A stretch of DNA of 21,136 nucleotides, from IMG/VR virus record IMGVR_UViG_2667528074_000001; one strand, 5' to 3'. This document shows, one piece after another, positions 1 through 20,689 of the stretch. Numbering within the stretch: position 1 is the stretch's first letter; each line of letters opens with the position of its first letter. Below the pieces are notes generated by a model. It was given only the letters and a program-made list of their open reading frames with translations, ran no database searches and had not been told where the DNA came from. The DNA comes from a virus. Taxonomy: Duplodnaviria; Heunggongvirae; Uroviricota; Caudoviricetes. The translations under genes and the position numbers were made by a program.

Positions 1-386
1 TGCCCTGCCTGTCGTTCGCTTTCTGTTGCGGTTTCGGCACCCTGCTGCGCCTGCGCCACCATTTCCTCAAATCGTTTCACCACGTCGGGTTTGAGGTCGC
101 CTTCATCCAGGGCAGTCAGAAAATCGTTCAGCGTGCCGGGCTTTGAGTCGTCGTATACAGCAATATCGCCAACACAGTACTCGTCGCGCCAGCCCTGTTT
201 CAGATATACGCAATATTTTCCGGTCTGCGCCTCAAAACAGTACTCGCCACAGTTTCCTGTCACCACGTCGGCAACTGTGCGCATCACCACCTCTGAGGTG
301 TTTACCCGGGATTTCAGAATAATGTGGCATCCGGACATGGGGATACCTGCGCCATCAATCAGCGCACCTGATATCACTACAGACAT
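1..386 (-). CDS. Side tail fibre protein, N-terminal domain (lambda Stf-like); gene starts at ATG 386..384 and runs off the window start
   Basis: Manual minus-strand translation from ATG 386..384: MSVVISGALIDGAGIPMSGCHIILKSRVNTSEVVMRTVADVV...VYDDSKPGTLNDFLTALDEGDLKPDVVKRFEEMVAQAQQ, open to position 1. Matches, from memory, the conserved N-terminal domain of lambda Stf and related prophage side tail fibres (VYEDSQPGTLNDFL motif). Absent from the ORF track because it is truncated by the window edge. Confidence 0.7.
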   Translation of the reverse strand, partial: MSVVISGALIDGAGIPMSGCHIILKSRVNTSEVVMRTVADVVTGNCGEYCFEAQTGKYCVYLKQGWRDEYCVGDIAVYDDSKPGTLNDFLTALDEGDLKPDVVKRFEEMVAQAQQGAETATESERQAG

Positions 387-409
387 AGTTTTTCTCGCGA
401 TAAATTAAA

Positions 410-955
410 TCAGGAAGAGGCTTCCGGAGAGACGGGCCATTCAATGGCGTTATATGAGACTTTATCAGTGATGGTGCTGAAATCCATCGCCTGCAGCGAT
501 TTCGCGTAAATGCGGTACGCTTTCAGCTTTTCCCTGTCTTCGTTGCTGATTAACCCCAGCAATAAATCCTTTTCCCACTCGCTGGTCATGATGCTGGCCT
601 GTTGTAACAGGGCATCGCGTTCATCTTCCGCTTTAAGTTTGTAGTCGAAAACAAATTCATCATTGCGGTAGAACCAGTAACCCGGTGCGGTAATGCGACG
701 GTTAGCGGTAATGTCCGGAACCTCAATAACACTGGTGTTGCGGGGTTCAATGCCTGTCACATCCTTACCGACCCATACCACGCGACCATCTCCGGTGTAA
801 GCTATTTTTATTGTGTCGCTGGCGAAATTCTTCAGTTCTTCATACCAGTTTTTGTCGTCTTCCGAAAAAAGCCAGGTAACATCATATTTTTTTGTCATCT
901 GGTATTGTTCTGCGGTTTTCGGATTACCCGCAGTAATATTTTTTAAATGCAACAT
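410..955 (-). CDS. Tail fibre assembly protein (P2 gpG-like Tfa)
   Basis: 181-aa ORF. N-terminus MLHLKNITAGNPKTAEQYQMTKKYDVTWLFSEDDKNWYEELKNF closely resembles recalled P2 G / Tfa N-terminus (MQHLKNI..GNPKT.EQYQ). Lies directly downstream of the tail fibre gene (2-nt gap). Confidence 0.88.
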   Translation of the reverse strand: MLHLKNITAGNPKTAEQYQMTKKYDVTWLFSEDDKNWYEELKNFASDTIKIAYTGDGRVVWVGKDVTGIEPRNTSVIEVPDITANRRITAPGYWFYRNDEFVFDYKLKAEDERDALLQQASIMTSEWEKDLLLGLISNEDREKLKAYRIYAKSLQAMDFSTITDKVSYNAIEWPVSPEASS

Positions 956-957
956 TG

Positions 958-2166
958 TTAAACACTCGCCACGTTATACCAGGTGCCGTTAATCAGTTTC
1001 TGAAGCGGTCGGTAATACACACCGCCAATGTTATCTGCCGAATTACTCCCGGTTTCCTGCACATTAATACCTGATAATCCGTGGCCTGAAGGTGAGCGAA
1101 ATGTCCAGGATATCTGGTTACCTCCCGGGTTGTAATACATTTCGGAACCATAACGCACATCCTGCACGCCGCCATTTCGCTGCTGGTAACGGGCATCGAA
1201 ATTTCCATAGTTTGATGGGGTCATCTGTCCGTTTACAGCGAATGTGACGCTACCGTCTGTATTTCTCTGACTATAGAAATGCCAGCCGGAATCATCACCA
1301 AGTTCTGCAACTACAGGTCTGGATTGATTGCCCCATAAATTAAACCCTACGTTCTTCGTGGAACTGTCAGAACTGGATAGCGTAAACCTTCTGCCATTTC
1401 CGGCCTGAATATTTTTTAACGCCATCGCCACGCCATTCTGAAAACGAAATACATGCTGACCATTCGCATAAACATCCAGAATGCCATCGCCGTTTTGTTT
1501 CAGGCCAGTATCGTTATCCCCGAAAGCAATTGAGTTTCCGCCCAGCGCGTTCTGAACACCGATACCAAGCGCACCATTGACCTGAGAACCGCCGCCAACA
1601 GACACTTTATGCGACATGGATATTTCACCCGTCCGCAGATTAATAGTGAACGGGCGAAGTGGACCAATATCGCCATTTTCACCCTGGTTTTCCTGTGTTG
1701 GAATAAGATACAGGAACTCTTCCGAACGACGAAAAATAAGACCAAAAGCGTCGTTGAAAATCCTCAGCGCATTAACACCACGGATTTTAAGTTCCCCGGT
1801 CATGGTGTCACCATCACGCTGAACGGCATTTTTTGCCTTGTCCACCGTGGGTTTTAATCCGAGGTTTTCAACAGCCTCATCCTTGTCTTCCACATCCGAA
1901 AGATTATTTTTCCTCAGCAATGCCTCTTCGTTAATTGCACCGCCCACCAGTAATAATATGGCTTTATATAGCTGATCGTGTTCTTCTTTATTCAGTTCTA
2001 TCCCGGCCTTCTCAATGACACCACAGATTTCCTCCTGAATGGCATCCCACATGGCACTGTTCAGCCAGGTGGCAAGACGTCCTGTGCGAAGATTTCCGTC
2101 AGTAAATCCGTTCTTGCCCGGACCAAACTTATCTTTTACCGCTGTCAGCGTATCAATCCTGTGCAT
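958..2166 (-). CDS. Tail fibre protein, mosaic: P2 gpH / lambda Stf-like C-terminal receptor-binding region
   Basis: ORF track 958..2199; start placed at the ATG at 2166..2164 (MHRIDTLTAV...), which gives an ATGA-type overlap with the upstream gene's stop. C-terminal half (NALGGNSIAFGDNDTGLKQNGDGILDVYANGQHVFRFQNGVA...WHFYSQRNTDGSVTFAVNGQMTPSNYGNFDARY...INGTWYNVASV) matches recalled P2 H C-terminus. The N-terminal ~200 aa is unrelated to P2 H. Confidence 0.85.
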   Translation of the reverse strand: MHRIDTLTAVKDKFGPGKNGFTDGNLRTGRLATWLNSAMWDAIQEEICGVIEKAGIELNKEEHDQLYKAILLLVGGAINEEALLRKNNLSDVEDKDEAVENLGLKPTVDKAKNAVQRDGDTMTGELKIRGVNALRIFNDAFGLIFRRSEEFLYLIPTQENQGENGDIGPLRPFTINLRTGEISMSHKVSVGGGSQVNGALGIGVQNALGGNSIAFGDNDTGLKQNGDGILDVYANGQHVFRFQNGVAMALKNIQAGNGRRFTLSSSDSSTKNVGFNLWGNQSRPVVAELGDDSGWHFYSQRNTDGSVTFAVNGQMTPSNYGNFDARYQQRNGGVQDVRYGSEMYYNPGGNQISWTFRSPSGHGLSGINVQETGSNSADNIGGVYYRPLQKLINGTWYNVASV

Positions 2167-2743
2167 CCTCAGCCTCCTCTGGATAAGAAAATAAAACAAC
2201 GGTATGCGACGGACATAATTTATTAATCACGCACTCCGCAACCGTATCGCCCCACGTCCGGATCGGTGTGTTGCAGGCATCCGTGCATGTCTGCCACTGA
2301 GCACCGGCATCCACCGGCAACGTCACACGCCAGAAATAACGCCAGCGATCCCCCCATTCCGGATCGGGGCTTGCATCCAGGTGCTGGAACTGTTCGATCG
2401 TCACGCCGGTATATCCCAGCGCCTCAAGCTGATCCAGGAAGAACTGCTTATTTATGCCACCAGCCACATTGGCTTTTGCTTCAAGACGTTGCTGACGCTG
2501 GCGTAATGTCTGGGTTCCGACAGGGGAACAGGAATCAGGTAAACCATACAATTCTTCATAACGTTCAATCAGCTCTGTGGACTGACTGGGATCGATTTCA
2601 ATCACCAGTTCATCAGCCCGCTGGTGAACACGCACAAGCGATGGTGCCAGACCGTCAAGTACACCGTCGGTATCTGACCATGCAGGTCCCGGCGGCATCA
2701 GGCCATACAACAATTTTGTATAATCATCCTGTAACGTATCCAT
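2153..2743 (-). CDS. Tail/baseplate protein, Mu gp48-like (DUF2313 / YmfQ-like, gpI analogue)
   Basis: 196-aa ORF between the baseplate J-like gene and the tail fibre gene, the position occupied by gp48 in Mu-type tail modules. Stop overlaps the fibre start. Confidence 0.7.
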   Translation of the reverse strand: MDTLQDDYTKLLYGLMPPGPAWSDTDGVLDGLAPSLVRVHQRADELVIEIDPSQSTELIERYEELYGLPDSCSPVGTQTLRQRQQRLEAKANVAGGINKQFFLDQLEALGYTGVTIEQFQHLDASPDPEWGDRWRYFWRVTLPVDAGAQWQTCTDACNTPIRTWGDTVAECVINKLCPSHTVVLFSYPEEAEDAQD

Positions 2744-3825
2744 TATTTACTCCTTACCGGGTCATAAGCCTGCCATGTGATCTCCCCGAGCACCGGAAGC
2801 TCAGTTTCCCCCAGGTCAATATCCGATGAAGGGTCGATAAGTCGATGGGCCACCTCACCTGCAGATAAACTGATAGCCTCGCTGATTCTGGACAGATACA
2901 TGCGCCCTTCCGGCACACCATCCCGGAACATCAGCGCATTCAGTTCTGATTTTATTGCCGCCCTGATCTGCGGTGTGTCTTTCGATAACGCAATCGTCAT
3001 CGGAATGACTTTTTCTGTGGCACCGAATACATACAATCCGCTTCCGGCAACAGGTGCCAGAGGAAGGATGTGGTCCCTGACTGCGTTAATCACGCTTTCA
3101 TCCGGGGCCGGGTGTTCCGGATCGTTTGTCGCCACCATCACGCCAACCGTTCCAATCCCTTTCCAGTGTCTGAAAGTCCATGCACGGTTAATACCCTGAA
3201 CTTCTTTCGCCCAGATAACATAATCAGGGTCTGCGCCCCCCTGTGGAATGTAGTAATAACGTTCCATAACGCGGGCACGCCATATTTCCAGATTTTCAAT
3301 ATCTTCACCGTCTGTAATGGTGTCTGCGTACCCTGTGGACGGCAGACCACTGACGGGTGTTCCCAGCTGCATGGCAATACCATCATCCGTATTCCCAGCC
3401 GATCCCGGTTCGTCTGCCACAACAGGCACCCGGAGAAGACCATCGGCTGCGGTCACCGTCGCCGTCGTGGTGAAGGTCACCTGATCATCACGCTGGATCT
3501 GCGTTCCCGCTGGCAATACCGGCGTCCCCTCTACGCCATCCCAGCGCACAAATCCCCGGGCTGCCACCGCATCTTTTCGCGGGCAGCGTTTGATTCTGGC
3601 GTGCCGGTACAACCAGTCTTCATCACACATGTCCGGCAACAGATTTCTGGCAAGATAATCGATATACCCGTATAACGTGTGTACGGCTGCAGCCTGTACA
3701 CGGGCATACACTTCCGCATCCATACGACGAAGCAGCGTATCCTGCTCAAAGCGGGTTAATAAATCGCTCCGGATCATAGAAATAAGTTGCGGGAGGCCGG
3801 GGCGATAAAACTGACTGTCAGCCAT
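2743..3825 (-). CDS. Baseplate J-like protein (Mu gp47-like)
   Basis: 360-aa ORF. Size, position after the gp46-like gene and sequence character are consistent with the baseplate J family. Start overlaps the upstream gene's end. Confidence 0.78.
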   Translation of the reverse strand: MADSQFYRPGLPQLISMIRSDLLTRFEQDTLLRRMDAEVYARVQAAAVHTLYGYIDYLARNLLPDMCDEDWLYRHARIKRCPRKDAVAARGFVRWDGVEGTPVLPAGTQIQRDDQVTFTTTATVTAADGLLRVPVVADEPGSAGNTDDGIAMQLGTPVSGLPSTGYADTITDGEDIENLEIWRARVMERYYYIPQGGADPDYVIWAKEVQGINRAWTFRHWKGIGTVGVMVATNDPEHPAPDESVINAVRDHILPLAPVAGSGLYVFGATEKVIPMTIALSKDTPQIRAAIKSELNALMFRDGVPEGRMYLSRISEAISLSAGEVAHRLIDPSSDIDLGETELPVLGEITWQAYDPVRSK

Positions 3826-4231
3826 TCAGTTCACTCCAGATATCATCAAAAATAATGTTGTGAATATTGCCGTCACGCTGGTAAATGGTAATGGCAAGTG
3901 CCAGCGAGTCTGTCCCGGTCCGGACAGCGTTAATATCAAGACGGGAAGCAGCACCATCCTCCACCATCCACGCCAGCGCCTCACGGGCATAATCTCTGGC
4001 AAGCTGCGGGGTTTTATTTGTCAACTTGCTGCGTCGCAACAGATACAGACGCGACCCCGTGCGATCATTCTGAACCGCAGGCCAGGTATCCCCCCACCAT
4101 CCAAATATCTGCGGCGCATCATCATCCCGCCCGGCACGCCGCCAGGTAAAAAGCGAAATAATCACAGCACGCGTCAGAAGGTCGAGCGAAGCCCCGGTCG
4201 ACACGGATCGCCCGTTAACATTAATCATCAT
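3818..4231 (-). CDS. Baseplate protein, Mu gp46-like (gpW/gp25-like wedge)
   Basis: 137-aa ORF in the conserved position between the spike (gpV-like) and baseplate J-like genes. Confidence 0.68.
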   Translation of the reverse strand: MMINVNGRSVSTGASLDLLTRAVIISLFTWRRAGRDDDAPQIFGWWGDTWPAVQNDRTGSRLYLLRRSKLTNKTPQLARDYAREALAWMVEDGAASRLDINAVRTGTDSLALAITIYQRDGNIHNIIFDDIWSELNG

Positions 4232-4236
4232 GATTT

Positions 4237-4770
4237 TCAGCCCATCGGTTGATCCGGCGTGTCAGTGATCCCGCCACCATCACCATTTTCGGTGTGTTTG
4301 TGGGCATTGTAGGTCTGCCGCATTTGCTGCATGCTGAGTCCGCCACTGTCGCAATTGTCAGTAATATCAGCGGTGGATTCGACAGGCATTTCAAAGCGCG
4401 CTTTAGGCGCGTTTTTAAAAATAATGGGCTTCCCGGCCCCGTTCACCACAATACCGGAACGGGTCAGGACAACGGACTGCCCCTGATCGTCATAAAGCGC
4501 CACTTCCCCACGTTTCAGTCCTTTCAACCTGTAACGTCTGTCAGACACGACCACAACCACACCATGAGAACGGTCGCCTGCCGGGAATAAAGCAACGCCC
4601 TCAGCACCGTTCTGTGCAGCAGATGTAAAACCATAAGGCTCAAGGTGCTCAACGTGTTGTTTCTGATCTCCGGCTATCATTTTCAACCCTACAGACTGAC
4701 ACTTTCTGGCGGAATCCACCGCCGTGATGACAGCCCGGGAAATCAGATTGCGAAGAGAAAACCCGTTCAT
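4237..4770 (-). CDS. Baseplate assembly protein V-like central spike (Mu gp45-like)
   Basis: 177-aa ORF with gpV-like features (GDRSHGVVVVVSDRRYR, then a Gly-rich tip KHTENGDGGGITDTP). Conserved position. Confidence 0.78.
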   Translation of the reverse strand: MNGFSLRNLISRAVITAVDSARKCQSVGLKMIAGDQKQHVEHLEPYGFTSAAQNGAEGVALFPAGDRSHGVVVVVSDRRYRLKGLKRGEVALYDDQGQSVVLTRSGIVVNGAGKPIIFKNAPKARFEMPVESTADITDNCDSGGLSMQQMRQTYNAHKHTENGDGGGITDTPDQPMG

Positions 4771-5825
4771 CAGAAATCCTCCTCAACATTTTTTTTCTTC
4801 CTGGCGGTGACAGGCTCAGGGAGATAAGCATCTGCCGGGCCAACCCGTAATTCGGTCGTCGTGCCCCGGTCGTCATGGTTATAGGTAACTTCTGCGATCA
4901 CCAGTTCATCATTATCAAAATTATTCAGCGGGTCGAAAACGATGACAGATAACCCCGGACGCCATAACGCGCCACTGCCCTGCCGCCAGCCCTGAACCGT
5001 ATATGTTGTCTCACGGGTAAGCGCAGCCCGTTGGCGCGCTTCAAATTCACAACGGGCCTTACAGGTTGCTGTCGTTGCTGTACCTGACTGCTGAATCAAC
5101 AAAGGGCGATAACGGGTCACGCCACTGTCCTGAATGGTCTGACGTATTGCGGCAATGGTGGCCTCACCAAAATCATCGTCGTTGCCCGGGCGCTGCCCAC
5201 TGACCTGATATTCAGAAAACCGCTCTCTGATGCTTCTTTCCGTGTCACAGGAAAGAATATTCTCTCCCAGCACCAGTGCTGTCGCCGCCTTGCCTGTTCC
5301 TGGTTTCCCCAGAACCAGTCGTCCGCATTCATCGTCATAAGCCAGCGTCTGAACCTGCCCCAGCAACCGGTTAAGACAATCGGCAACAGTTTCGCCGTGT
5401 TCCGGCTGGGCATCAATCACCGCTGTCTGCGGCACGCCAGCATCAACAACGGTGATGCCAAATGGCGCAGCCAGTTCACTGACTATTCTGAGCAGGTTTT
5501 TTCCGCTCTGCTGAAGTGGCAAAGCAGAGCAGTCAACCAGATCGGCTGTTTTGCTTCGCCCGACAATACCCATGCTGACGCTGCTGGCGTCATAACGAAG
5601 CGGCAGTGCCTCCACATATCCGGTGAGCACGGGATCATCCCCGATAAGCACTTCAACCAGCTCACCATTTTTTATCCGGGGTTGATAATCCCGGCTTCCG
5701 GGCCAACGGGTGGTAATGGCAACATTAAAATCCCGGGCAATACGGTTAATGCCCGCACTGATACGGACGGATGTCCAGCCGCCCCATTCGCGACCGGAAA
5801 CCCGAAGTAAAACGGTATTATTCAT
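4770..5825 (-). CDS. Baseplate hub protein (Mu gp44 / gpP-like)
   Basis: 351-aa ORF between the DNA circularisation gene and the spike gene. TGATG/ATGA-type overlaps with both neighbours. Confidence 0.7.
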   Translation of the reverse strand: MNNTVLLRVSGREWGGWTSVRISAGINRIARDFNVAITTRWPGSRDYQPRIKNGELVEVLIGDDPVLTGYVEALPLRYDASSVSMGIVGRSKTADLVDCSALPLQQSGKNLLRIVSELAAPFGITVVDAGVPQTAVIDAQPEHGETVADCLNRLLGQVQTLAYDDECGRLVLGKPGTGKAATALVLGENILSCDTERSIRERFSEYQVSGQRPGNDDDFGEATIAAIRQTIQDSGVTRYRPLLIQQSGTATTATCKARCEFEARQRAALTRETTYTVQGWRQGSGALWRPGLSVIVFDPLNNFDNDELVIAEVTYNHDDRGTTTELRVGPADAYLPEPVTARKKKNVEEDF

Positions 5826-7213
5826 CTGACGGGTACCCTTAATGCCCTGACCGGAACAAAGCCCGGATGGGAGATGGCATTTCGATCCAGGATATCAGTT
5901 TCACGGGACGCATCGTCGTACCATGACGCAGCCAGAACAAGCGCAGGCAGAACCTCCGCTGGCGTTCGCTCTGCGGTTTCCTCCGTCTGAACCAGGCGCG
6001 CCTGAATATCCCGGTTCAGTTCTGTACGTAATGACGTCAGCTGAAAAAACAGCCTGTCATCCGTCGTCCGTCTGAGTTCCTGTTCAATCGCCGCGTTAAG
6101 CGATTCGCGTATGATGGTGAGATTTTCCCGCGTGGGTGGTTGTGCTGTCTCATTCTGCTCTGTGCTGGCAGTCACACTGTCAAGTGCCGGATGTGAAACG
6201 TGAATAATATCAGACTGACGCTCAGCAGAGCCGCCAACAGCCACAACCGCCTGCTGATTTTTCACCAGACTTCCGGGTTGCGGCAGTGAAGTGACCGCCC
6301 TTGCAGCCTCGCTGACTGCCGTCGTCCGGATGACTGCAGCCACCAGATTTGTCTGCTGTTTTTGCCTGACAACCGATGCGGAATCTGTGGGCCACACCGC
6401 GCGCGGTGCCAGTCCTGGATCCAGCGTAATACCGGACATTGTGGTTATGGACTGCACCAGATCCTGTGTGTTATCCACCAGTCTGGTTCCGGCCCGCCAG
6501 GTATCCTGCAACGTATGCACAAAATCACTGGCAAACGATGGCGGCATCAGAATGACGGACAAATCACCCTGCAGCAGCCTCATTCCGGCAGAAACAGCAG
6601 AATTAACCATTCTGAAAGCCGTCTGAACGGTTCCCAGCATATCGGTTGCCCGGACAATAACGTCGTTCTGAATAAAGTCCGGTATTCCCGCGAGATCAAA
6701 ATCGCCGAACATGTCTTCAATCAGCTCATCCAGGAATCCTGACGACTCCTCCAGTTTTCTGGCGGTTGCGGCTCCGGCGACCGGAAATGACAGCTCCCCG
6801 CTCTCAACAAACTGAAATGACACCCGGCACATACGGCCTTCAGTACCGGAATGAGAAACGGTCACCTGTCCGTCAATACAGCCCTGCATTTCACCGAACT
6901 GCGGATGGATCAGTGTCCCCGGCCCGGCGGTTTCAATCGCGGTAATCAGCCTGTCGCGCTGCTCTGCGTAATCATCACCAACGAGATACGCATTAATCGT
7001 CAGCCGTCGCGTGGCACGCCCGAGATCTTCCGTGTACGGTTTGTCACGGTCTGGATATTCATGGACCTGAACGCGACGTCCGAACGTACCCTCGTCGCTT
7101 TCCACTGAAAACGGAACACCTCGAAAAGAAGCGTCATAAAGATTATCGCGCCATGTCGTTCCGGAAGATGAAGAAAACAAAGAGGACAAAGAAGGTAAGG
7201 AAGGAAAATCCAT
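5822..7213 (-). CDS. DNA circularisation protein N-like (Mu gp43-like)
   Basis: 463-aa ORF immediately downstream of the tape measure gene, the conserved position of Mu N. N-terminal region (YDASFRGVPFSVESDEGTFGRRVQVHEYPDRDKPYTEDLG) is consistent with that family. Confidence 0.72.
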   Translation of the reverse strand: MDFPSLPSLSSLFSSSSGTTWRDNLYDASFRGVPFSVESDEGTFGRRVQVHEYPDRDKPYTEDLGRATRRLTINAYLVGDDYAEQRDRLITAIETAGPGTLIHPQFGEMQGCIDGQVTVSHSGTEGRMCRVSFQFVESGELSFPVAGAATARKLEESSGFLDELIEDMFGDFDLAGIPDFIQNDVIVRATDMLGTVQTAFRMVNSAVSAGMRLLQGDLSVILMPPSFASDFVHTLQDTWRAGTRLVDNTQDLVQSITTMSGITLDPGLAPRAVWPTDSASVVRQKQQTNLVAAVIRTTAVSEAARAVTSLPQPGSLVKNQQAVVAVGGSAERQSDIIHVSHPALDSVTASTEQNETAQPPTRENLTIIRESLNAAIEQELRRTTDDRLFFQLTSLRTELNRDIQARLVQTEETAERTPAEVLPALVLAASWYDDASRETDILDRNAISHPGFVPVRALRVPVR

Positions 7214-7228
7214 TCTGATATCCCATTG

Positions 7229-9178
7229 TTAACGCCTGAAAGGTGAATACCCAACGTCATGGGTGATTTTCATAAAGGGATCGCCTGTTTTCGGCAAATC
7301 GATGACACGCATTCCAGGCGGCGCGTTGTCAAACGTCACCTTAAGTTCGCTGCGGGTTGCCGGTGAAGATGAAAGGTTTAACAGCTGATTCCTTTCCAGT
7401 GATACATTCGGGGTGTAGCGTTTTTCTGGAGATAAATACCCATCACCACGTGGCATCTGCCATCCGGTCATGTCATAGACAAAATCATGGAACTGTTTGC
7501 CCCACTCGTCGAACTTATCATTCAGACCAAATCCACTGTTCAGCGCATCAGCCACAAAATTTTTAACAAGCCAGGGATGTTCTTTTTCAAACTCCTGCGC
7601 CATCATGCCGAGCTCAAGCAATCCCCCAATGAGGCTGATCTTTCCGAGGCCCTTTAATTTCAGGGATGTTTTACCTGCCGCCGCTGTCCATTGATTCTGA
7701 GCGGCTATTGCTGCACGAATGCTTGCCACCGCCTTCACACCAATATACAGGGCAGAAACCGTTGCTATTGTTTTTACTGCCTGTTCCCATCCCCCCATTG
7801 CTCTGACAACCTGATCAACCTCCTGCCAGACTTTTTTCACAACCGGCCCGACCGTTTCCCAGTTATCAATAATGAGATACGCCCCTGCCACCAGTAACGT
7901 AATGAGTCCCTTTGCCGGTGTCATATTCATCACACCACTAAGGATTTTTCCCATCCGCGACAGCGAGCCAATGGCAACACCAAATGTCAGCAGTGCCAGC
8001 CCCGTTTTCGCGATGGTTTTTACGACCTCAGGATTTTCTCTGACAAACGTGCGCACTTCTTCCAGAAAAGGCTTCATCTCTTTTATGCCTTCATTGAGTG
8101 AAGGCAGGAAGGTTTCCCCCAGCGTGGAAGAAATCGCATTGATCTGGTTCTTCAGCAGCAACAACTGGTTTTCCGTCGTCGCGGCACGGGCGGCATATTC
8201 TTTCTGCATTGAGCCGCCATACTGCTGCGCATCCGCCACACGATTAAAATTGGTTCGCAACAAATCCAGATTCGTGAGCAGCGGCGCGATGGCTCCCAGA
8301 GATTCCTTCCCGAACAGCGCATTCAGCACTGCAGCCTGTTTTTCTTTCGGCACTTTCGCCAGAGAATCCAGTACATGCAGCATGGCACCCCGGGCATCTT
8401 TCTGCATATCCGCCGCCAGCTTTTTCGGGTCAATGCGCAACAGGCGAAGCGCTTTTTTCTGCGATTTGGTGGCAGAATTCCCCGCTGTCAGCGACAGCAT
8501 AAAATTCTTTATCCCCGTCGCCGCAATTTCTGATTCCACCCCCATTCCGGCAATGGTTGCCCCCATTGCGGCAATCTCTCCGGAGGCCACACCCGCAACA
8601 CTGCCTAAAGGGCCAATACGGGTCACAACATCAGAAATCTTTTTCGCACTTGCAGGACCGGTATTACCAAGATAGTTAATCTTATCCGCAAGTCCTGCCA
8701 CCTCACCCTGTGTCAGTTTGAAGGCAGTGCGCCACTGTGCCATCATCTGACCGGATTCTTCCGCCGTGGTGTCAAAGGCCACCCCCATCTTCACGGCGTC
8801 GTCAGTAAACTGCATCAGCTCGTCACGGGCGATGCCAGCCTGACCACCCGCCGCCACGATTTCGGCGATACCTTCCGCCGACATGGGCAGTTCTGTTGAC
8901 AGGTCGCGCACCTGTTCCGTCATTGCCTTAAACGCTTCCGGCGTATCCAGACCATCCACCACTTTCCGGACATCCGCCATTTTTGATTCAAGGGCAATGG
9001 CAGATTTGACCGGGAGCGCCAGCGCCCCCAGTACTGCGGTTCCGGCACCCGCTGCGCCCAGTGACAGACTGGCAAACTCCTTTTTAAAGCCTTTCAGCTG
9101 GCGCTGCATCCCTTTCAGCGGTGCCGACACCTTATCCACGGCAGTGATGATCGCCTTCAGCTGAAAACTGTCAGCCAT
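7229..9178 (-). CDS. Tail tape measure protein
   Basis: 649-aa ORF, Ala/Gly-rich with predicted coiled-coil and hydrophobic segments. Follows the chaperone gene. ATG at 9178..9176 confirmed by eye. Confidence 0.9.
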   Translation of the reverse strand: MADSFQLKAIITAVDKVSAPLKGMQRQLKGFKKEFASLSLGAAGAGTAVLGALALPVKSAIALESKMADVRKVVDGLDTPEAFKAMTEQVRDLSTELPMSAEGIAEIVAAGGQAGIARDELMQFTDDAVKMGVAFDTTAEESGQMMAQWRTAFKLTQGEVAGLADKINYLGNTGPASAKKISDVVTRIGPLGSVAGVASGEIAAMGATIAGMGVESEIAATGIKNFMLSLTAGNSATKSQKKALRLLRIDPKKLAADMQKDARGAMLHVLDSLAKVPKEKQAAVLNALFGKESLGAIAPLLTNLDLLRTNFNRVADAQQYGGSMQKEYAARAATTENQLLLLKNQINAISSTLGETFLPSLNEGIKEMKPFLEEVRTFVRENPEVVKTIAKTGLALLTFGVAIGSLSRMGKILSGVMNMTPAKGLITLLVAGAYLIIDNWETVGPVVKKVWQEVDQVVRAMGGWEQAVKTIATVSALYIGVKAVASIRAAIAAQNQWTAAAGKTSLKLKGLGKISLIGGLLELGMMAQEFEKEHPWLVKNFVADALNSGFGLNDKFDEWGKQFHDFVYDMTGWQMPRGDGYLSPEKRYTPNVSLERNQLLNLSSSPATRSELKVTFDNAPPGMRVIDLPKTGDPFMKITHDVGYSPFRR

Positions 9179-9262
9179 GCTTCATCTCCTCGTTAATGCG
9201 GACGGCCTCGGCTTCCAGTTCTGTAAACTGCGAAATAGCCACCCGTCGCAGCTCCAGTGGAT

Positions 9263-9592
9263 TCAGTTTCCAGAACCAGGCAACATTGTAGAGTCGTTTC
9301 CGGAGGTGCTTCCCGTCTCCGACTGGGTAAAAAAACGCAGGATCTGCATGCTGGTCTTAAAAATATCCAGTTTTGCCATCTGCGCCGCCGATGAACGCGG
9401 GATCCCCGCCAGCAACGGGATATATTTCAGCGCCACCTGGCTGTCCAGTTTAATACTGCCCTCACCGGAAATAATGAAAGGAAAACCCAGGGCCTCGATT
9501 TCGTCATACGTGGGTTCACGCAACTCCAGCACATGCAGCGTTTCGTTATGCGCTGTCACCGGTTTTTTTAAAACAATTTCTGTCACGCTCAT
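9263..9592 (-). CDS. Tail assembly chaperone, zero-frame product (109 aa)
   Basis: ORF between the tail tube and tape measure genes. Contains the slippery T7 run at codons 87-88 (see regulatory feature 9329..9335 and findings). Confidence 0.72.
   Translation of the reverse strand: MSVTEIVLKKPVTAHNETLHVLELREPTYDEIEALGFPFIISGEGSIKLDSQVALKYIPLLAGIPRSSAAQMAKLDIFKTSMQILRFFTQSETGSTSGNDSTMLPGSGN
9329..9335 (-). promoter_or_regulatory. Predicted -1 programmed ribosomal frameshift site (slippery heptamer T TTT TTT)
   Basis: Minus-strand sequence CTG CGT TTT TTT ACC inside the chaperone ORF. The -1 frame is open from here for 52 codons to a TGA at 9173..9171, which overlaps the tape measure start. 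Confidence 0.6.
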
Positions 9593-9948
9593 TACTGATA
9601 TCCTCCCTCTTCGCCGTGGAATTCAAGATCTGCCGTACCTTCTTCGGCATTATGGTTTGCTTCGCCGTGCAGCCATGCCGCCGAAAGCACATACACCATG
9701 CCGTTTGCCAGCTCGGCAGTAATCGTCATCTGATCTGAGGTGGTAATTTTGTCGACCGGAAAATTTTTGGGCACTTTAAACGTGCCCTTAACGTAAGGTG
9801 ACCGCCAGGTCTCCTTGTAATCCACATCACCAGCCATGCCGACGACATCATCCCGGACATTGGTGTTCATCGGCACTTCAATTCCACCTGTCAGCGATAA
9901 CTGCTGACCATCCACTTTAAAAAAACAGGTTCCGGCGATCTTTGCCAT
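9592..9948 (-). CDS. Tail tube protein (Mu gpM-like)
   Basis: 118-aa ORF directly downstream of the sheath gene (1-nt overlap), the typical size and position for a myovirus tube protein. Confidence 0.8.
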   Translation of the reverse strand: MAKIAGTCFFKVDGQQLSLTGGIEVPMNTNVRDDVVGMAGDVDYKETWRSPYVKGTFKVPKNFPVDKITTSDQMTITAELANGMVYVLSAAWLHGEANHNAEEGTADLEFHGEEGGYQ

Positions 9949-11444
9949 TATGCTGACTCCTCTGAATACTGGAGACGGAACTGGTTAACCACCGCAAAGA
10001 CACGTAACTGGTTAACATAATCCGGCGGGAACAGCGTGTTCAGTCGGTTCGGGTTATCCGCATCACGCTCAACTGTCAGATACTGTTTAAACAGATCGTA
10101 ATTTTCCACAATACCGGCACGCTCCATCTGACGATATGTCGCCAGAAGCTCCCCTTTGATAACGGCAGGGGTGACAATCGCCTGCCCCGGACCAAAACGG
10201 GTACCATCATTTGCCAGCTTGTGACGTCCGTACTTGCTGGTGATGACCGTTCTCAGTTTGCGAAGAACGTATGCGCTGGTATGCAGTGTTTCACTGTCCA
10301 GATAGCTGTTGTCTGCCACACCATACGCATTCTTTTTGTAGGTGGTTACGGAACGCTGGATCCGCAACGTGCCACCTTCCACATAAGCCGTCGCCACGCC
10401 GTGAGATAAAAGAGTCTGCTGCTCTGTCATGATGAATCGCTTACCTTTCGGTGCCGGAAGCATCCCCACCAGTTCCCCCGTCTGTGTCGGACGGGCCGGG
10501 TCATTGCGGATAAATACCGCTTCACGGGCAAGGCGACTGGCAACCAGTTCATCGACAGGCGACTGGGTTTCTTTTTCGTAACCGGCAAGCGTGATATGTT
10601 GCTGATTATGCATATCTCCGGCATCAACCAGCTCTGACAGCGTTCCCAGTTTTGCGGTATAGACATGCCCGTATAACTGGCGCGCATAACTCCAGCGACC
10701 ACTGCTGTCATTCATTTCGGTCATCATCATATTGATGGAAGCGGCATCGTTAAACGGCAGACCGATAAAGTCGAATGCCTCATCGCCCATAGCAGCAACA
10801 GCGGCGGTAAGATCAGGCGCGCCGCTACCCGCAGTTCCGGCTTCCGTCACGACCTGAAGCCCCGCAGGCAGAAGCTCACCACCACCAGAACCATAATAAT
10901 TCAGGCAGACAGGCAACTCGTTACCATACAGCCCCTTATGGCGGGCAGTCAGTGTCACCACACCTGCATCAGATGACGCCGCAAACGGCAGGGTGATAAC
11001 CCCGTTTACCGCTTCCTTAATCGCGGTGGCAACCGCAGTGGCATCATCGCCATTCACCACAGGCACCTGTACACGGGAGCGCCCGACATACAGACTCAGG
11101 GTGCCGCTTTCCTCTGCTTCTCCGGTAACTGTCACCCTGACCGTCGCCGCCGCCCCTCTGGCTTCCGGTACTGCAATAACATACAGTTCACCGAAAGGAT
11201 CTGTCTGACGGTAGACGTCAACCATACGCGCCAGCTGGCTCCCGGCCCCACAAATCTGACGGGCATAATCTGCCGACGGCATCAGCACCAGGCTGTTAAC
11301 CTCAATGGCGGCATCGTTGCTGGCATGCCCGATCAATAATGCAGGCGCGCTGGTCACTGCTGTATTTGCCGCAGAATTGTCCATCTCGGCGTAGAACAAC
11401 GGCACCAGCGTATTCGACGGAACAGCACTAAAACTTATTGTCAT
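9948..11444 (-). CDS. Tail sheath protein (Mu gpL-like)
   Basis: 498-aa ORF. Size and position upstream of the tube and chaperone genes. ATG at 11444..11442 overlaps the stop of the preceding small ORF (ATGA). Confidence 0.85.
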   Translation of the reverse strand: MTISFSAVPSNTLVPLFYAEMDNSAANTAVTSAPALLIGHASNDAAIEVNSLVLMPSADYARQICGAGSQLARMVDVYRQTDPFGELYVIAVPEARGAAATVRVTVTGEAEESGTLSLYVGRSRVQVPVVNGDDATAVATAIKEAVNGVITLPFAASSDAGVVTLTARHKGLYGNELPVCLNYYGSGGGELLPAGLQVVTEAGTAGSGAPDLTAAVAAMGDEAFDFIGLPFNDAASINMMMTEMNDSSGRWSYARQLYGHVYTAKLGTLSELVDAGDMHNQQHITLAGYEKETQSPVDELVASRLAREAVFIRNDPARPTQTGELVGMLPAPKGKRFIMTEQQTLLSHGVATAYVEGGTLRIQRSVTTYKKNAYGVADNSYLDSETLHTSAYVLRKLRTVITSKYGRHKLANDGTRFGPGQAIVTPAVIKGELLATYRQMERAGIVENYDLFKQYLTVERDADNPNRLNTLFPPDYVNQLRVFAVVNQFRLQYSEESA

Positions 11445-11611: not shown

Positions 11612-12175
11612 TTATTTCTGAGGGAAACGCATTTCCAGATGGTGCTCAATGTCACCATCCGGGCCAGTACCAGGATCGATGTAATCCACATCAATACTCA
11701 GCAGGGATAAATCCGGCAGGGCATTCACGTCCTCTGCCTGTCGCGTGTCTCCTTCCGTGATTTCATACTTCGCCGTAAAGTCAAACTGGTAATACAGTTC
11801 GTAACGGTTCAGATCCAGCAGGGTGCCACCGGCATAAACAATCTCGCCCCCCTGCGGGTCCGGCATCCACCCAAGCAGGGCTTTCCAGAGTTCTCTCCGG
11901 ACATCATGAACGGCGTCATAGGCTGCCCACTGCCCCTTTTCATCACGCTCATTGCTGAGCACCACAATCACGGAAAAGCCTTCGGTCAAATCCTGCCAGT
12001 AATCGGTCTGTGATTTTTGCTCCCCAGGCGCATCGTCAGAGGGGACAACATAGGCAGCAGGCAGTCGCAATTTTCCGGCATCAGGGATCGCCTTAAACTG
12101 CGCCGCGCCACCAACCCGATTATCAAAACGCGGGCATCGCTCACGCAACGCCGCAATTATTGTTGTCAGTTTCAT
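11612..12175 (-). CDS. Neck / tail completion protein (Mu gp37-like)
   Basis: 187-aa ORF. ATG 12175..12173 overlaps the upstream stop (ATGA). Sits in the conserved neck region between the head-tail joining genes and the sheath. Exact family not verified. Confidence 0.65.
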   Translation of the reverse strand: MKLTTIIAALRERCPRFDNRVGGAAQFKAIPDAGKLRLPAAYVVPSDDAPGEQKSQTDYWQDLTEGFSVIVVLSNERDEKGQWAAYDAVHDVRRELWKALLGWMPDPQGGEIVYAGGTLLDLNRYELYYQFDFTAKYEITEGDTRQAEDVNALPDLSLLSIDVDYIDPGTGPDGDIEHHLEMRFPQK

Positions 12176-12696
12176 TTACGCTTCCTTTTTACCGGACGTA
12201 ACGAACGCTGCAGCTCACGGGACAACAGTTCCTGCGTCCAGTGACGCCGCCGCTCAATAACGTCAGCCATAAAGTTATTACGCGGGGCCAGCCGGAAAGT
12301 CGAAGAATGGTGCTTCTTCTGCCGCTTATCCTTTTTATCCATTCCATAAGCTGAATGGCGAACGCCGTAATACAGAAACGCCGGATAATAAGGAGCGCCT
12401 TCAGGAAAACGGCGATTCCCCTGCCCGTTTTTCTGGTCAGGGGAAATTTTCACCATCAGCCCGGGACGACGCGTCGTTTTTTTGGGAACGTAATAACCAA
12501 TGGAGCGGGCCAGACGCCCGGTCTGATACCCCGGGTTCTCTCCCGAGCCGGAACGCCCGCGTTTAATCACCAGACGTCTGGCGTCACGCATGTAAACGCG
12601 CCCGATTTGCACAAACGCCCGACGCAGACGGGCGCGATTAAACTCCAGCTCCTTTGGTTGTTTAAAGTCGACGTGTAAAAATGCTGTCTGATTCAT
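12172..12696 (-). CDS. Virion morphogenesis / neck protein (family unverified)
   Basis: ORF track 12172..12735; start placed at the internal ATG 12696..12694 (MNQTAFLHVDF...), which has a GGGGTG SD-like motif. It still overlaps the upstream gene's 3' end. Basic C-terminus. Confidence 0.6.
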   Translation of the reverse strand: MNQTAFLHVDFKQPKELEFNRARLRRAFVQIGRVYMRDARRLVIKRGRSGSGENPGYQTGRLARSIGYYVPKKTTRRPGLMVKISPDQKNGQGNRRFPEGAPYYPAFLYYGVRHSAYGMDKKDKRQKKHHSSTFRLAPRNNFMADVIERRRHWTQELLSRELQRSLRPVKRKRK

Positions 12697-13078
12697 GGCA
12701 TTCACCCCGTCGTCGCGCTGTACGCAGTTCTTCACATTCCAGTAATAAAAAACGCCGCTGACCGTTCAGGTCGCGTATTCGCCGGATCCGGTACTCCTGA
12801 CCGTAATAAACCACCTCATGATCTGCCGTGATGTCGTGACGGAAACGGATCGTAAAATAATGTGTAACGATATTTTCTGTCTGCACTGAGCCCTGATAAG
12901 CAGCAGCGCCTGGCTGAGCCACCTTTGCCCAGACATCAAACGACTCCGGATACGTCGGCTTCGTACCAAAATCAGCGGTGGGTTCATCCACACGGAGGCG
13001 GATCTTTATCCGGCGATTCAGTTCTCCGGGATCCGGTAAAAGGTAAGTGGCACTGGTCTGACTTTGCCTGATTTTCAT
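12662..13078 (-). CDS. Head-tail joining / head closure protein
   Basis: ORF track 12662..13111; start placed at ATG 13078..13076 (MKIRQSQ...), which forms an ATGA overlap with the connector gene's stop. Sequence (WAKVAQPGAAAYQGSVQTENIVTHYFTIRFRHDITADHEVVYYGQEYRIRRIRDLNGQRRFLLLECEEL) fits the recalled head-tail joining family signature. Confidence 0.78.
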   Translation of the reverse strand: MKIRQSQTSATYLLPDPGELNRRIKIRLRVDEPTADFGTKPTYPESFDVWAKVAQPGAAAYQGSVQTENIVTHYFTIRFRHDITADHEVVYYGQEYRIRRIRDLNGQRRFLLLECEELRTARRRGECHESDSIFTRRL

Positions 13079-13398
13079 AGAGGCACAATCCTGTAAGGAC
13101 CAGCGAGCCATCTGAAACTCACTGGCGTTTCAAGTTTCTCAACATCGGTACTCGCTGAACGATTTTCATAAAAATGACTGACCAGCATCAGCATGGCCAG
13201 ACGAACGTCATCAGTCAGATGCATCCCGTCAGGATCATCTTCCGGAATCGTCTCTTCCGGTGCATACAACTTCCTGTTCAGGTATGTCTCTGTTCTTTTC
13301 TGTACCGCCTGTGCCAGCAATTGCAGAAAATCGCCGTCACTGTACAAACCATCATCGAGCCGGAGGTGAGATTTAATCTCCTCTTCTTTCAGGAGCAT
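13075..13398 (-). CDS. Head-tail connector protein (gp6-like)
   Basis: 107-aa acidic ORF immediately downstream of the major capsid gene. ATG 13398..13396 is preceded by AGGAGG. Confidence 0.75.
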   Translation of the reverse strand: MLLKEEEIKSHLRLDDGLYSDGDFLQLLAQAVQKRTETYLNRKLYAPEETIPEDDPDGMHLTDDVRLAMLMLVSHFYENRSASTDVEKLETPVSFRWLAGPYRIVPL

Positions 13399-19132: not shown

Positions 19133-19483
19133 TCACTTGATTCGTTCGCGCGCTGTTTTCTCTTTGTGGCAGGGCCAGCACAGACTCCGCAGGTTGCTGT
19201 CTGCGTCTGTTCCGCCATGCGCTTTCGGGATGATGTGGTCGACAGTTTTCGCCTCGCTCACCACACCGACACGCAGACACAACTGACACAGACCTTTATC
19301 GCGCTTCAGAATACGGGCACGAATCACCGTCCATTTTGAGCCATAACCACGCTGGTGGCGGCTCAGTCCGCGCTGGTGCTGTGCCCAGCCTTCACCACGA
19401 TGTTTATCGCAGTAGCCAGAACTGTCTGTCGTTGTGCCTGCGCAGCCTCGCTTACGGCATGCGCGGGGGATCCGTGATGGCAT
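19133..19483 (-). CDS. HNH endonuclease (packaging-associated)
   Basis: 116-aa ORF. Cys-rich N-terminus (CRKRGCAGTTTDSSGYCDKH) and HNH motif (VDHIIPKAHGGTDADSNLRSLCWPCHKEK). Position directly upstream of the small terminase is typical of HK97-like cos phages. Confidence 0.9.
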   Translation of the reverse strand: MPSRIPRACRKRGCAGTTTDSSGYCDKHRGEGWAQHQRGLSRHQRGYGSKWTVIRARILKRDKGLCQLCLRVGVVSEAKTVDHIIPKAHGGTDADSNLRSLCWPCHKEKTARERIK

Positions 19484-19542: not shown

Positions 19543-19755
19543 ATGAAAAATACTATTTCAAAAGGATTTCACCGGACAGGCGTTCTGTTGGCTATTTTGG
19601 TGTTGATGTTGAGCTTTGGTTTCTTTTTATTAACAGGTGCTGGTACAGGAATCTCGTTATTTGCTGTATTAGTTTCCCTGGTATGTGCCTTACTGACATA
19701 CGGCATACTCAGACTGGTCGGATGGGCCGTTAACGGATTCATAAAAGATAACTAA
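19543..19755 (+). CDS. Small membrane protein (70 aa, two predicted TM helices), moron-like, opposite orientation to the late operon
   Basis: ATG 19543 preceded by GGAGA (6-nt spacer). Sequence MKNTISKGFHRTGVLLAILVLMLSFGFFLLTGAGTGISLFAVLVSLVCALLTYGILRLVGWAVNGFIKDN. Followed by the stem-loop at 19765..19789. Locally AT-richer than the flanking structural genes. Confidence 0.55.
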   Translation: MKNTISKGFHRTGVLLAILVLMLSFGFFLLTGAGTGISLFAVLVSLVCALLTYGILRLVGWAVNGFIKDN

Positions 19756-20367: not shown

Positions 20368-20550
20368 TCAGTTCTGCATGCACTGCCGGACACCGTCGAC
20401 AATTTCACAGACCTGAGAAGCTGTATCGAAAAACTGACGCGCCTTATCCAGGCTGACGCATCCCACCAATAAAAAAGGCACCAGTATCGCTACCAGTGCC
20501 CATTTCGCCGCCGTTCGCGGCATTCTGTGTGTCCAGTGTTTTCGCTTCAT
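20368..20550 (-). CDS. Putative small lipoprotein (60 aa)
   Basis: ATG 20550..20548 (MKRKHWTHRMPRTAAKWALVAILVPFLLVGC...). Basic N-region, hydrophobic core and a lipobox-like LVGC, followed by a ~30-aa mature part with two more Cys. The ORF track's longer form starts at TTG 20565. Confidence 0.5.
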   Translation of the reverse strand: MKRKHWTHRMPRTAAKWALVAILVPFLLVGCVSLDKARQFFDTASQVCEIVDGVRQCMQN

Positions 20551-20554
20551 CTCG

Positions 20555-20689
20555 CTATCCACCAATCAATCCGGATAAGCTCAATACTCGCCAGGCGGTG
20601 GAAATGAAAATGGCAACCAACATTGCTGAAAATGAAAGGCCAACAACCACACAGAGAATTCGCGCCAGTTTTATAATGCTATCTGACAT
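20555..20689 (-). CDS. Small single-TM protein (44 aa)
   Basis: Internal ATG 20689..20687 of track ORF 20555..20782. Sequence MSDSIIKLARILCVVVGLSFSAMLVAIFISTAWRVLSLSGLIGG. SD-like AGGGGT upstream. Ends 4 nt before the lipoprotein ATG. Confidence 0.4.
   Translation of the reverse strand: MSDSIIKLARILCVVVGLSFSAMLVAIFISTAWRVLSLSGLIGG

Follow-up and report, generated by a model that had tools for sequence, protein, structure and literature searches.

The left end of the 21,136-nucleotide (nt) Caudoviricetes stretch in IMG/VR record IMGVR_UViG_2667528074_000001, referred to below at its full length as the window, is occupied by the distal part of a late tail operon. The operon belongs to a temperate Escherichia coli phage of the phiP27 family, which has a contractile tail and is integrated at ssrA. 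This operon end very probably holds two complete and unrelated pairs of tail fibre and chaperone genes, arranged in tandem and co-transcribed, whose fibres would be displayed together on one virion and confer two receptor specificities. The four genes are intact and co-linear, have clear homologues, are conserved among relatives and are under purifying selection, and the cassette that they form contains no inversion switch.

Two tandem fibre–chaperone pairs

All genes of the fibre region lie on the minus strand. A previous reading of the letters alone (the sequence-only reading) had recognized a fibre gene at 958..2166, an adjoining chaperone, a 23-nt gap and a second fibre-like gene starting at ATG 386, and each of these coordinates was confirmed on that strand. 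The features at this end of the window are as follows, where aa denotes amino acids.

2153..2743, minus strand: Mu gp48-like baseplate wedge protein of the YmfQ family (PF10076, Phage_Mu_Gp48; expectation (E) value 3e-25)
958..2166, minus strand: fibre 1, 402 aa, from ATG 2166 to the stop codon at 958..960, with a GGAGG Shine-Dalgarno sequence upstream
410..955, minus strand: tail fibre assembly chaperone 1, 181 aa, a Caudo_TAP protein (PF02413) of the P2 G/Mu U family
387..409, minus strand: spacer of exactly 23 nt between chaperone 1 and fibre 2
1..386, minus strand: first 128 codons of fibre 2 (PF08400), open to the window edge
105..386, minus strand: Stf-type N-terminal collar domain of fibre 2 (aa 1 to ~94), followed by a linker and the start of a coiled coil

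The assignment of the N-terminus of the second gene to the conserved lambda Stf domain, made in the sequence-only reading, is borne out by profile, pairwise and structure-based comparisons. The 128 encoded aa match positions 1–127 of the 134 in PF08400 with 203.4 bits (cut-off 26.6; E 1.6e-60), and aa 1–123 share 41% identity with lambda orf-401, the product that corresponds to the Stf N-terminus (E 6e-30), with no pairwise alignment beyond aa 123. The N-terminal Stf structure of lambda (9e7m_Ta) is matched with an E value of 1e-16, and the collar spike gp40 of phage XM1, which has an N-terminal immunoglobulin-like domain (7kjk_A3), is matched by aa 1–201 with an E value of 1.3e-7. Fibres 1 and 2 show no similarity to each other in a pairwise comparison.

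The sequence beyond position 1 was obtained from 24 contigs retrieved by the exact chaperone 1 sequence. One of these, contig L011 (GCA_032373585.1), has a single mismatch to the window over 7,220 nt, and its flank shares 99.94% identity with a chromosome of E. coli. The following features continue the cassette in this contig.

L011 6835..8259: full-length fibre 2, 474 aa, an intact open reading frame
L011 8267..8830: DUF4376 chaperone gene, 187 aa, after an 8-nt gap behind fibre 2
L011 8878..8909: strong bidirectional hairpin terminator after the DUF4376 gene, followed by ssrA (transfer-messenger RNA)

The second fibre gene is thus not truncated in L011, and it is followed by a chaperone gene of its own. 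The L011 fibre 2 consists of the PF08400 domain, an alanine-rich coiled coil (~aa 130–215) and a C-terminal globular part, of which the last ~245 aa are the predicted receptor-binding domain. In each of the six contigs whose gene calls are complete (L008–L013, for which PF14301 is listed), a 474-aa fibre 2 and a DUF4376 protein of 187–189 aa are encoded. The DUF4376 proteins of phiP27 and E. coli C311 score 66 and 58 bits against PF14301. The DUF4376 protein showed no similarity to the Caudo_TAP chaperone 1 or to lambda Tfa, and a PDB sequence search with it found nothing; its family has been demonstrated experimentally to comprise fibre chaperones in Alteromonas phage V22 (PMC7289586, PMC10579305). 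The fibre 2 tip and the DUF4376 protein also recur as neighbours in the lytic myovirus Av-05 (31% and 38% identity, respectively) and in prophage SerU-LTIIb (32% and 74%). This recurrent pairing is the signature of a cognate pair, and the locus therefore holds two independent fibre–chaperone systems. Separately, PHROG 11571 matches chaperone 1 (410..955) in its N-terminal half and the second chaperone (L011 8267..8830) in its C-terminal half, the DUF4376 part; since this family spans both chaperone types, natural hybrids seem to exist.

Chaperone 1 begins 2 nt past the fibre 1 stop and matches PF02413 with 86.1 bits (cut-off 22.1; E 2.9e-24). The description of this protein as P2 G-like stands, with 40% identity and an E value of 4e-48, but it is equally near Mu U (40% identity; solved Mu U chain 5yvq_B, E 5e-38), and it is therefore better assigned to a joint P2/Mu family. 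A scan of the L011 stretch equivalent to the spacer between chaperone 1 and fibre 2 revealed no promoter-like site. A 5-bp GC-rich hairpin with a poor T tract (GGAAG CCT CTTCC, window 413..425) lies over the last chaperone 1 codons; it was considered as an attenuator damping read-through into fibre 2 and was dropped, because shuffled sequence contains such sites about as often.

The two-pair layout is an established trait of the family and is not peculiar to the window: it is known from phiP27 and from dozens of E. coli genomes, and the window represents a new allele combination of the phiP27 L54–L57 architecture. In phiP27 (NC_003356), genes L54–L57 constitute the same four-gene cassette, in which PF08400 and PF14301 were confirmed and which closes the tail operon and the genome end; E. 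coli C311 carries the same four genes with a fibre 2 of 759 aa, and the cassette is also present in Rac-SA53 (tail1–tail4) and vB_Apl-pPE4. When the junction between chaperone 1 and fibre 2 was surveyed with a 621-nt probe, counting matches at coverage of at least 80%, it was found in 88 of 5,426 complete E. coli genomes, and all 88 matches are annotated as a "tail fiber assembly protein" beside a "prophage tail fiber N-terminal domain-containing protein". Of the 11 relatives in which the gene is fully readable, 10 have an intact fibre 2 of 474–1,061 aa, and a DUF4376 gene always lies downstream of the intact gene. The ratio of non-synonymous to synonymous substitution (dN/dS), calculated by the Nei-Gojobori method against four relatives, is 0.08–0.095 for the fibre 2 N-domain at a dS of 0.22–0.33, 0.27–0.37 for full-length fibre 2, 0.11–0.16 for the DUF4376 gene, 0.12–0.25 for fibre 1 and 0.11–0.17 for chaperone 1. 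These low ratios, together with the conservation, indicate that fibre 2 is kept by selection and favour two functional systems over a remnant, an alternative that the sequence-only reading had left open.

The closest known system is phiP27 L54–L57, and phiP27 is 97% identical in nucleotide sequence to window 1431..10800. It has the same order of a Mu gp48-like gene, a fibre, a Caudo_TAP chaperone, a PF08400 fibre, a DUF4376 gene and the prophage end, and its fibre 2 N-domain is nearly identical to that of the window (dN 0.02). However, its fibre 1 has only 332 aa and ends in another tip, its chaperone shares 76% identity with that of the window, its 490-aa fibre 2 is 54% (tblastn) or 60% (local alignment) identical to the 474-aa protein of L011, and its integration site differs from that of the window prophage. 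phiP27 is said, in work ascribed to Muniesa in 2000 and to Recktenwald and Schmidt in 2002, to be an inducible, infectious phage. "Traversvirus P27" (PMC12502783) was set aside as a source on phiP27, as it is a different, short-tailed phage.

Modular composition of fibre 1

The sequence-only reading had described fibre 1 as a protein with an N-terminal part unrelated to P2 H and a C-terminal receptor-binding region that resembles P2 H, and had concluded that the distal fibre and its chaperone were exchanged horizontally. An alignment of eight fibre 1 proteins provides the following module map.

1825..2166, minus strand: aa 1–114, putative N-terminal anchor, specific to the tail backbone and weakly Mu S-like; Rac-SA53 and pPE4 have another N-terminus
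1585..1824, minus strand: aa 115–194, shaft common to all cassette variants in the eight-protein alignment
1192..1584, minus strand: aa 195–325, P2 H-like block of 131 aa, partly optional or swappable, 74% identical to P2 H aa 476–606
958..1191, minus strand: aa 326–402 and the stop codon, Mu S/phiTE-like distal tip that travels together with the chaperone

In a pairwise comparison, aa 99–402 align with P2 H aa 376–669 at 48% identity (E 7e-85), and the identity is unevenly distributed: 57% over aa 99–126, 27% over aa 127–194, 74% over aa 195–325 and 44% over aa 326–402. The stretch of 57% identity is the GDTMTGEL motif region of the shaft, which corresponds to P2 H aa 376–403 and also matches Mu S aa 150–199. 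At the nucleotide level, window 1187..1534 is 78% identical to Yersinia P2-like phages. The P2 H-like character of the C-terminal region is thus upheld for its core, but the extreme tip is nearer to other fibres: over the last ~77 aa, identity reaches 52% with Mu S (aa 439–504) and 44% with P2 H, and the tip matches 9cuy_c (E 3e-17), which has been identified as a short tail fibre protein from Pectobacterium phage phiTE (PMC11972413). Fibre 1 matches the Mu S structure 5yvq_A with an E value of 3e-25. No pairwise alignment with P2 H was obtained for aa 1–98, in agreement with the sequence-only reading, but this part is probably not an orphan: aa 31–116 weakly match Mu S aa 35–121 (pairwise E 8e-7; structure 8ju3_A E 2.6e-5; independent domain E value of 0.046 in the search of solved structures). 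Fibre 1 therefore appears to be a mosaic in which a weakly Mu S-like anchor is followed by the P2 H-like block and then by a tip of the Mu S/phiTE kind.

The variants of fibre 1 differ mainly in the middle of the protein. The segment at ~aa 255–320 is missing from phiP27 L54 and from the C311 fibre 1, and it is replaced in two contigs by an unrelated insert of ~115 aa (L012 3802..5157; L013 369..1361). Among contigs with an identical chaperone, fibre 1 is 330, 396, 402 or 451 aa long; despite loss or exchange of the middle block (window 1192..1400), the last ~70 aa remain unchanged, and the tip (aa 326–402) is identical wherever the chaperone is identical. The block alignment thus supports horizontal exchange, but of sub-gene blocks and not only of the distal half plus chaperone.

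The gene order of wedge, fibre and chaperone is the same as in P2 H/G and Mu S/U, and the start of fibre 1 overlaps the end of the Mu gp48-like gene by 14 nt, placing the fibre gene directly downstream of the wedge gene. The Mu S–U complex (5yvq) is homologous to the fibre 1 tip and chaperone 1. In contrast, the N-terminal third of fibre 1 is unrelated to that of P2 H and only weakly like that of Mu S, fibre 1 is much shorter than either reference protein (402 aa versus 669 aa in P2 H and 504 aa in Mu S), and, unlike Mu S/U, the locus has no invertible segment.

Possible attachment and use of the second fibre

The Caudo_TAP chaperone 1 would fold the fibre 1 tip and, by analogy with Mu, may stay on it; according to North and colleagues, Mu U and P2 G reportedly remain bound to the fibre tip. 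The C-terminal receptor-binding domain of fibre 2 would in turn be matured by the DUF4376 chaperone. The N-terminal ~114 aa of fibre 1 would anchor the trimer to the gp48-like wedge encoded upstream, as in Mu, where fibre gp49 is held by its N-terminus on a docking loop that gp48, the wedge protein, provides once per wedge (PMC11915804). Since a wedge of the Mu type has a single fibre-docking loop, presumably taken up by fibre 1, the most likely arrangement for fibre 2 is a collar on another six-fold ring of the tail or neck. With both fibres present on one virion at once, dual receptor specificity would be expected, and such a display would resemble that of Ur-lambda (J and Stf) or of XM1 (baseplate and neck spikes).

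Two solved systems illustrate how a domain of this kind may be held. In Ur-lambda, Stf residues 1–94 form a 12-copy collar round the gpV/gpM junction, from which four trimeric fibres speed adsorption (PMC12617516). The lambda protein has a homologous N-terminal collar followed by a coiled-coil shaft and is an accessory fibre beside the main adsorption organelle; however, the tail encoded in the window is contractile, so that the gpV/gpM docking site would not be exposed, and the C-terminal domain is unrelated, with a DUF4376 protein in place of a Caudo_TAP chaperone. The fibre 2 locus is thus not a strict lambda Stf/Tfa system. Nor is the arrangement a Mu-type switch. In the Vibrio myophage XM1, whose tail is contractile, the N-terminal ~100 aa of gp40 are homologous to fibre 2, and this domain attaches at the neck to the rings of the head-completion protein and the tail terminator, such that sets of receptor-binding proteins are located at both neck and baseplate; by gene numbering, gp40 is not encoded at the end of the tail cluster, unlike fibre 2 (PMC10457771). 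The second half of the locus can also be likened, by layout and family and not by sequence comparison, to gp26/gp27 of V22, where the fibre is followed by a DUF4376 protein of ~190 aa that is needed for fibre maturation; the V22 fibre is a baseplate fibre that lacks a PF08400 domain in the published table (PMC10579305), unlike fibre 2.

The same cassette is found on a second tail backbone, where it again ends the tail operon.

L016 645..6344: Rac-SA53 tail1–tail4 cassette
L017 1543..6198 (PP818812.1): vB_Apl-pPE4 cassette

The Rac-SA53 tail is contractile, as its 445-aa protein matches the sheath family PHROG 205 (E 2e-54); a PDB sequence search with this protein gave nothing useful. The other structural proteins of the window have no match in the Rac-SA53/pPE4 backbone (tblastn, E < 1e-3), and the fibre 1 of these two elements has an unrelated N-terminus of 229 aa in place of the window's anchor, whereas the first 110 aa of fibre 2 are 95–98% identical between the phiP27-type and Rac-SA53-type backbones. 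An exchanged anchor beside a nearly constant fibre 2 N-domain suggests that the collar domain grips a feature that makes low demands on sequence, or that its partner travels inside the cassette. On this basis it may tentatively be proposed, although we regard it as somewhat improbable, that fibre 2 is not a baseplate fibre, that its collar clamps either a generic six-fold ring (at the neck, as in XM1) or fibre 1 or its chaperone, and that the cassette is a self-contained host-range module able to move between unrelated tails without re-adaptation of an anchor. As a separate observation, the "Actinobacillus phage vB_Apl-pPE4", assigned to Actinobacillus pleuropneumoniae, is 89% identical in nucleotide sequence to window 1..1424 and is close to the E. 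coli phage Rac-SA53; this likeness makes the Actinobacillus host assignment look doubtful.

Several observations weigh against two functional systems, and some of them fit a different history, in which fibre 2 is the non-functional remnant of a module exchange with a lambdoid phage and only fibre 1 is used. The window by itself gives no basis for a judgement, as fibre 2 is cut by its edge. The Shine-Dalgarno sequence of ATG 386 is weak (GAGA) and is preceded by a small hairpin, and expression of fibre 2 may thus be low. Some relatives carry decayed copies: the fibre 2 gene of E. coli A31 has been reduced to a truncated pseudogene (L002 5607..6386), and in prophages of the type seen in E. coli AST215 it is deleted, leaving only the last 43 codons of the DUF4376 gene (L021 4882..5010). 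The AST215-type prophages also carry a broken gp48 gene, and as the relatives without fibre 2 show other decay, fibre 2 may simply be dispensable. Furthermore, the presence of fibre 2 in particles is deduced from genes, a single-sequence AlphaFold model of the 128-aa N-domain reached a predicted local distance difference test (pLDDT) score of 42, which is too poor for a fold search, and a PDB sequence search with the tail terminator and the head-completion protein of the window gave no match to the XM1 neck proteins gp5 and gp4. A remnant is nevertheless very improbable and largely refuted by the intact gene in all but one of the fully readable relatives, the cognate DUF4376 gene that always follows it, the low dN/dS of the N-domain at a dS of 0.22–0.33 and the junction conserved in 88 complete genomes. 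Still less credible is the use of the two loci as alternative fibres, displayed singly through a genetic switch such as the G segment of Mu or the C segment of P1. This idea draws on the Mu-like tail and on the invertible fibre segments of Mu, P1 and e14, but both fibre genes are on the operon strand, the terminator and ssrA directly follow the cassette, and the differing N-termini of the fibres leave no possible shared constant part. In addition, no inverted repeat longer than 22 nt is present in window 1..4000 or across the whole L011 cassette, no invertase is among the called genes of L008–L013, and the extended cassette contains no inverted fibre copy, which extends to the complete cassette what the sequence-only reading had noted for the window.

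If both fibres function, as preferred here, two specific sites of attachment can be compared for fibre 2. It may be a collar mounted at the neck like XM1 gp40, serving first reversible contact or sensing, a possibility to which we would give less than an even chance. The XM1 neck is the only solved contractile-tail context of the N-domain (7kjk; PMC10457771), the tube/tip junction that the lambda domain wraps is buried by sheath and baseplate in a myovirus, the Mu-type wedge has its single docking loop, and the window encodes a PF05521 head-completion protein and a PF23840 terminator, which are the kinds of proteins that gp40 binds. However, the neck proteins of the window and of XM1 have no sequence similarity, the fibre 2 gene stands at the end of the baseplate and fibre cluster, away from the neck genes, and a fibre of 474 aa is short for cell contact from the neck. 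Alternatively, fibre 2 might dock inside the cassette, either on the distal portion that the fibre 1 variants have in common or on the bound chaperone, to produce a branched fibre and a backbone-independent cassette. The occurrence of the cassette on two contractile backbones whose other proteins show no detectable similarity, with different fibre 1 anchors and an almost invariant fibre 2 N-terminus, is consistent with this arrangement, as is the divergence of this clade of Stf N-terminal domains, which are only ~41–51% identical to the lambdoid ones. It is nonetheless improbable, because both solved cases bind six-fold protein rings of the tail or neck and not fibres, lambda Stf needs no fibre 1, and the three N-domains of the XM1 trimer bind differently, which suggests loose sequence requirements and could itself be the cause of backbone independence.

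Other genes of the window and implications

The head of the phage is of the HK97 type, and its contractile tail, of the Mu type, carries a simple baseplate. Its head genes encode an HNH endonuclease, the small and large terminase subunits, a portal, an S78 protease, an HK97-type capsid protein, a connector, a head-completion protein (12662..13111) and a tail terminator (11612..12175), and its tail genes encode the sheath (9948..11444), the tube (9592..9948), a tape measure protein and Mu-type baseplate proteins gp44–48. The head-completion protein is of the SPP1 gp16 type (PF05521), and the tail terminator belongs to PF23840. A third neck component, and a possible docking partner of fibre 2, is encoded by the following feature, which has no Pfam match.

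12172..12735, minus strand: 187-aa open reading frame, matching PHROG 879 "tail completion or Neck1 protein" (E 7e-82)

Three further reading frames were recorded at the other end of the window.

19133..19483, minus strand: 116 aa, with an HNH-like Cys/His pattern, directly upstream of the small terminase gene
19543..19755, plus strand: 70 aa, with two hydrophobic stretches, on the strand opposite to the late operon; possibly a moron
20368..20565, minus strand: 65 aa, with a signal of the lipoprotein type that ends in LVGC; candidate spanin or other lipoprotein

An HNH-like gene before the small terminase gene is usual in HK97-type packaging modules.

The literature searched for phiP27 tail fibres and PF08400 contained no study of the second fibre or of the place of PF08400 fibres on temperate coliphages with contractile tails, and this location is the only point of some novelty in the present analysis. 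For annotation, the region is to be read as two complete fibre–chaperone systems of a phiP27-type prophage and not as a mosaic with leftover debris, which bears on the prediction of host range for E. coli prophages of the Stx2e type and their relatives. Engineered delivery particles make use of the lambda Stf collar domain as a handle for fusions; here the domain is encoded with contractile tails, to whose backbone it is apparently indifferent, and the site that the fibre 2 collar grips would show how portable the Stf handle is.

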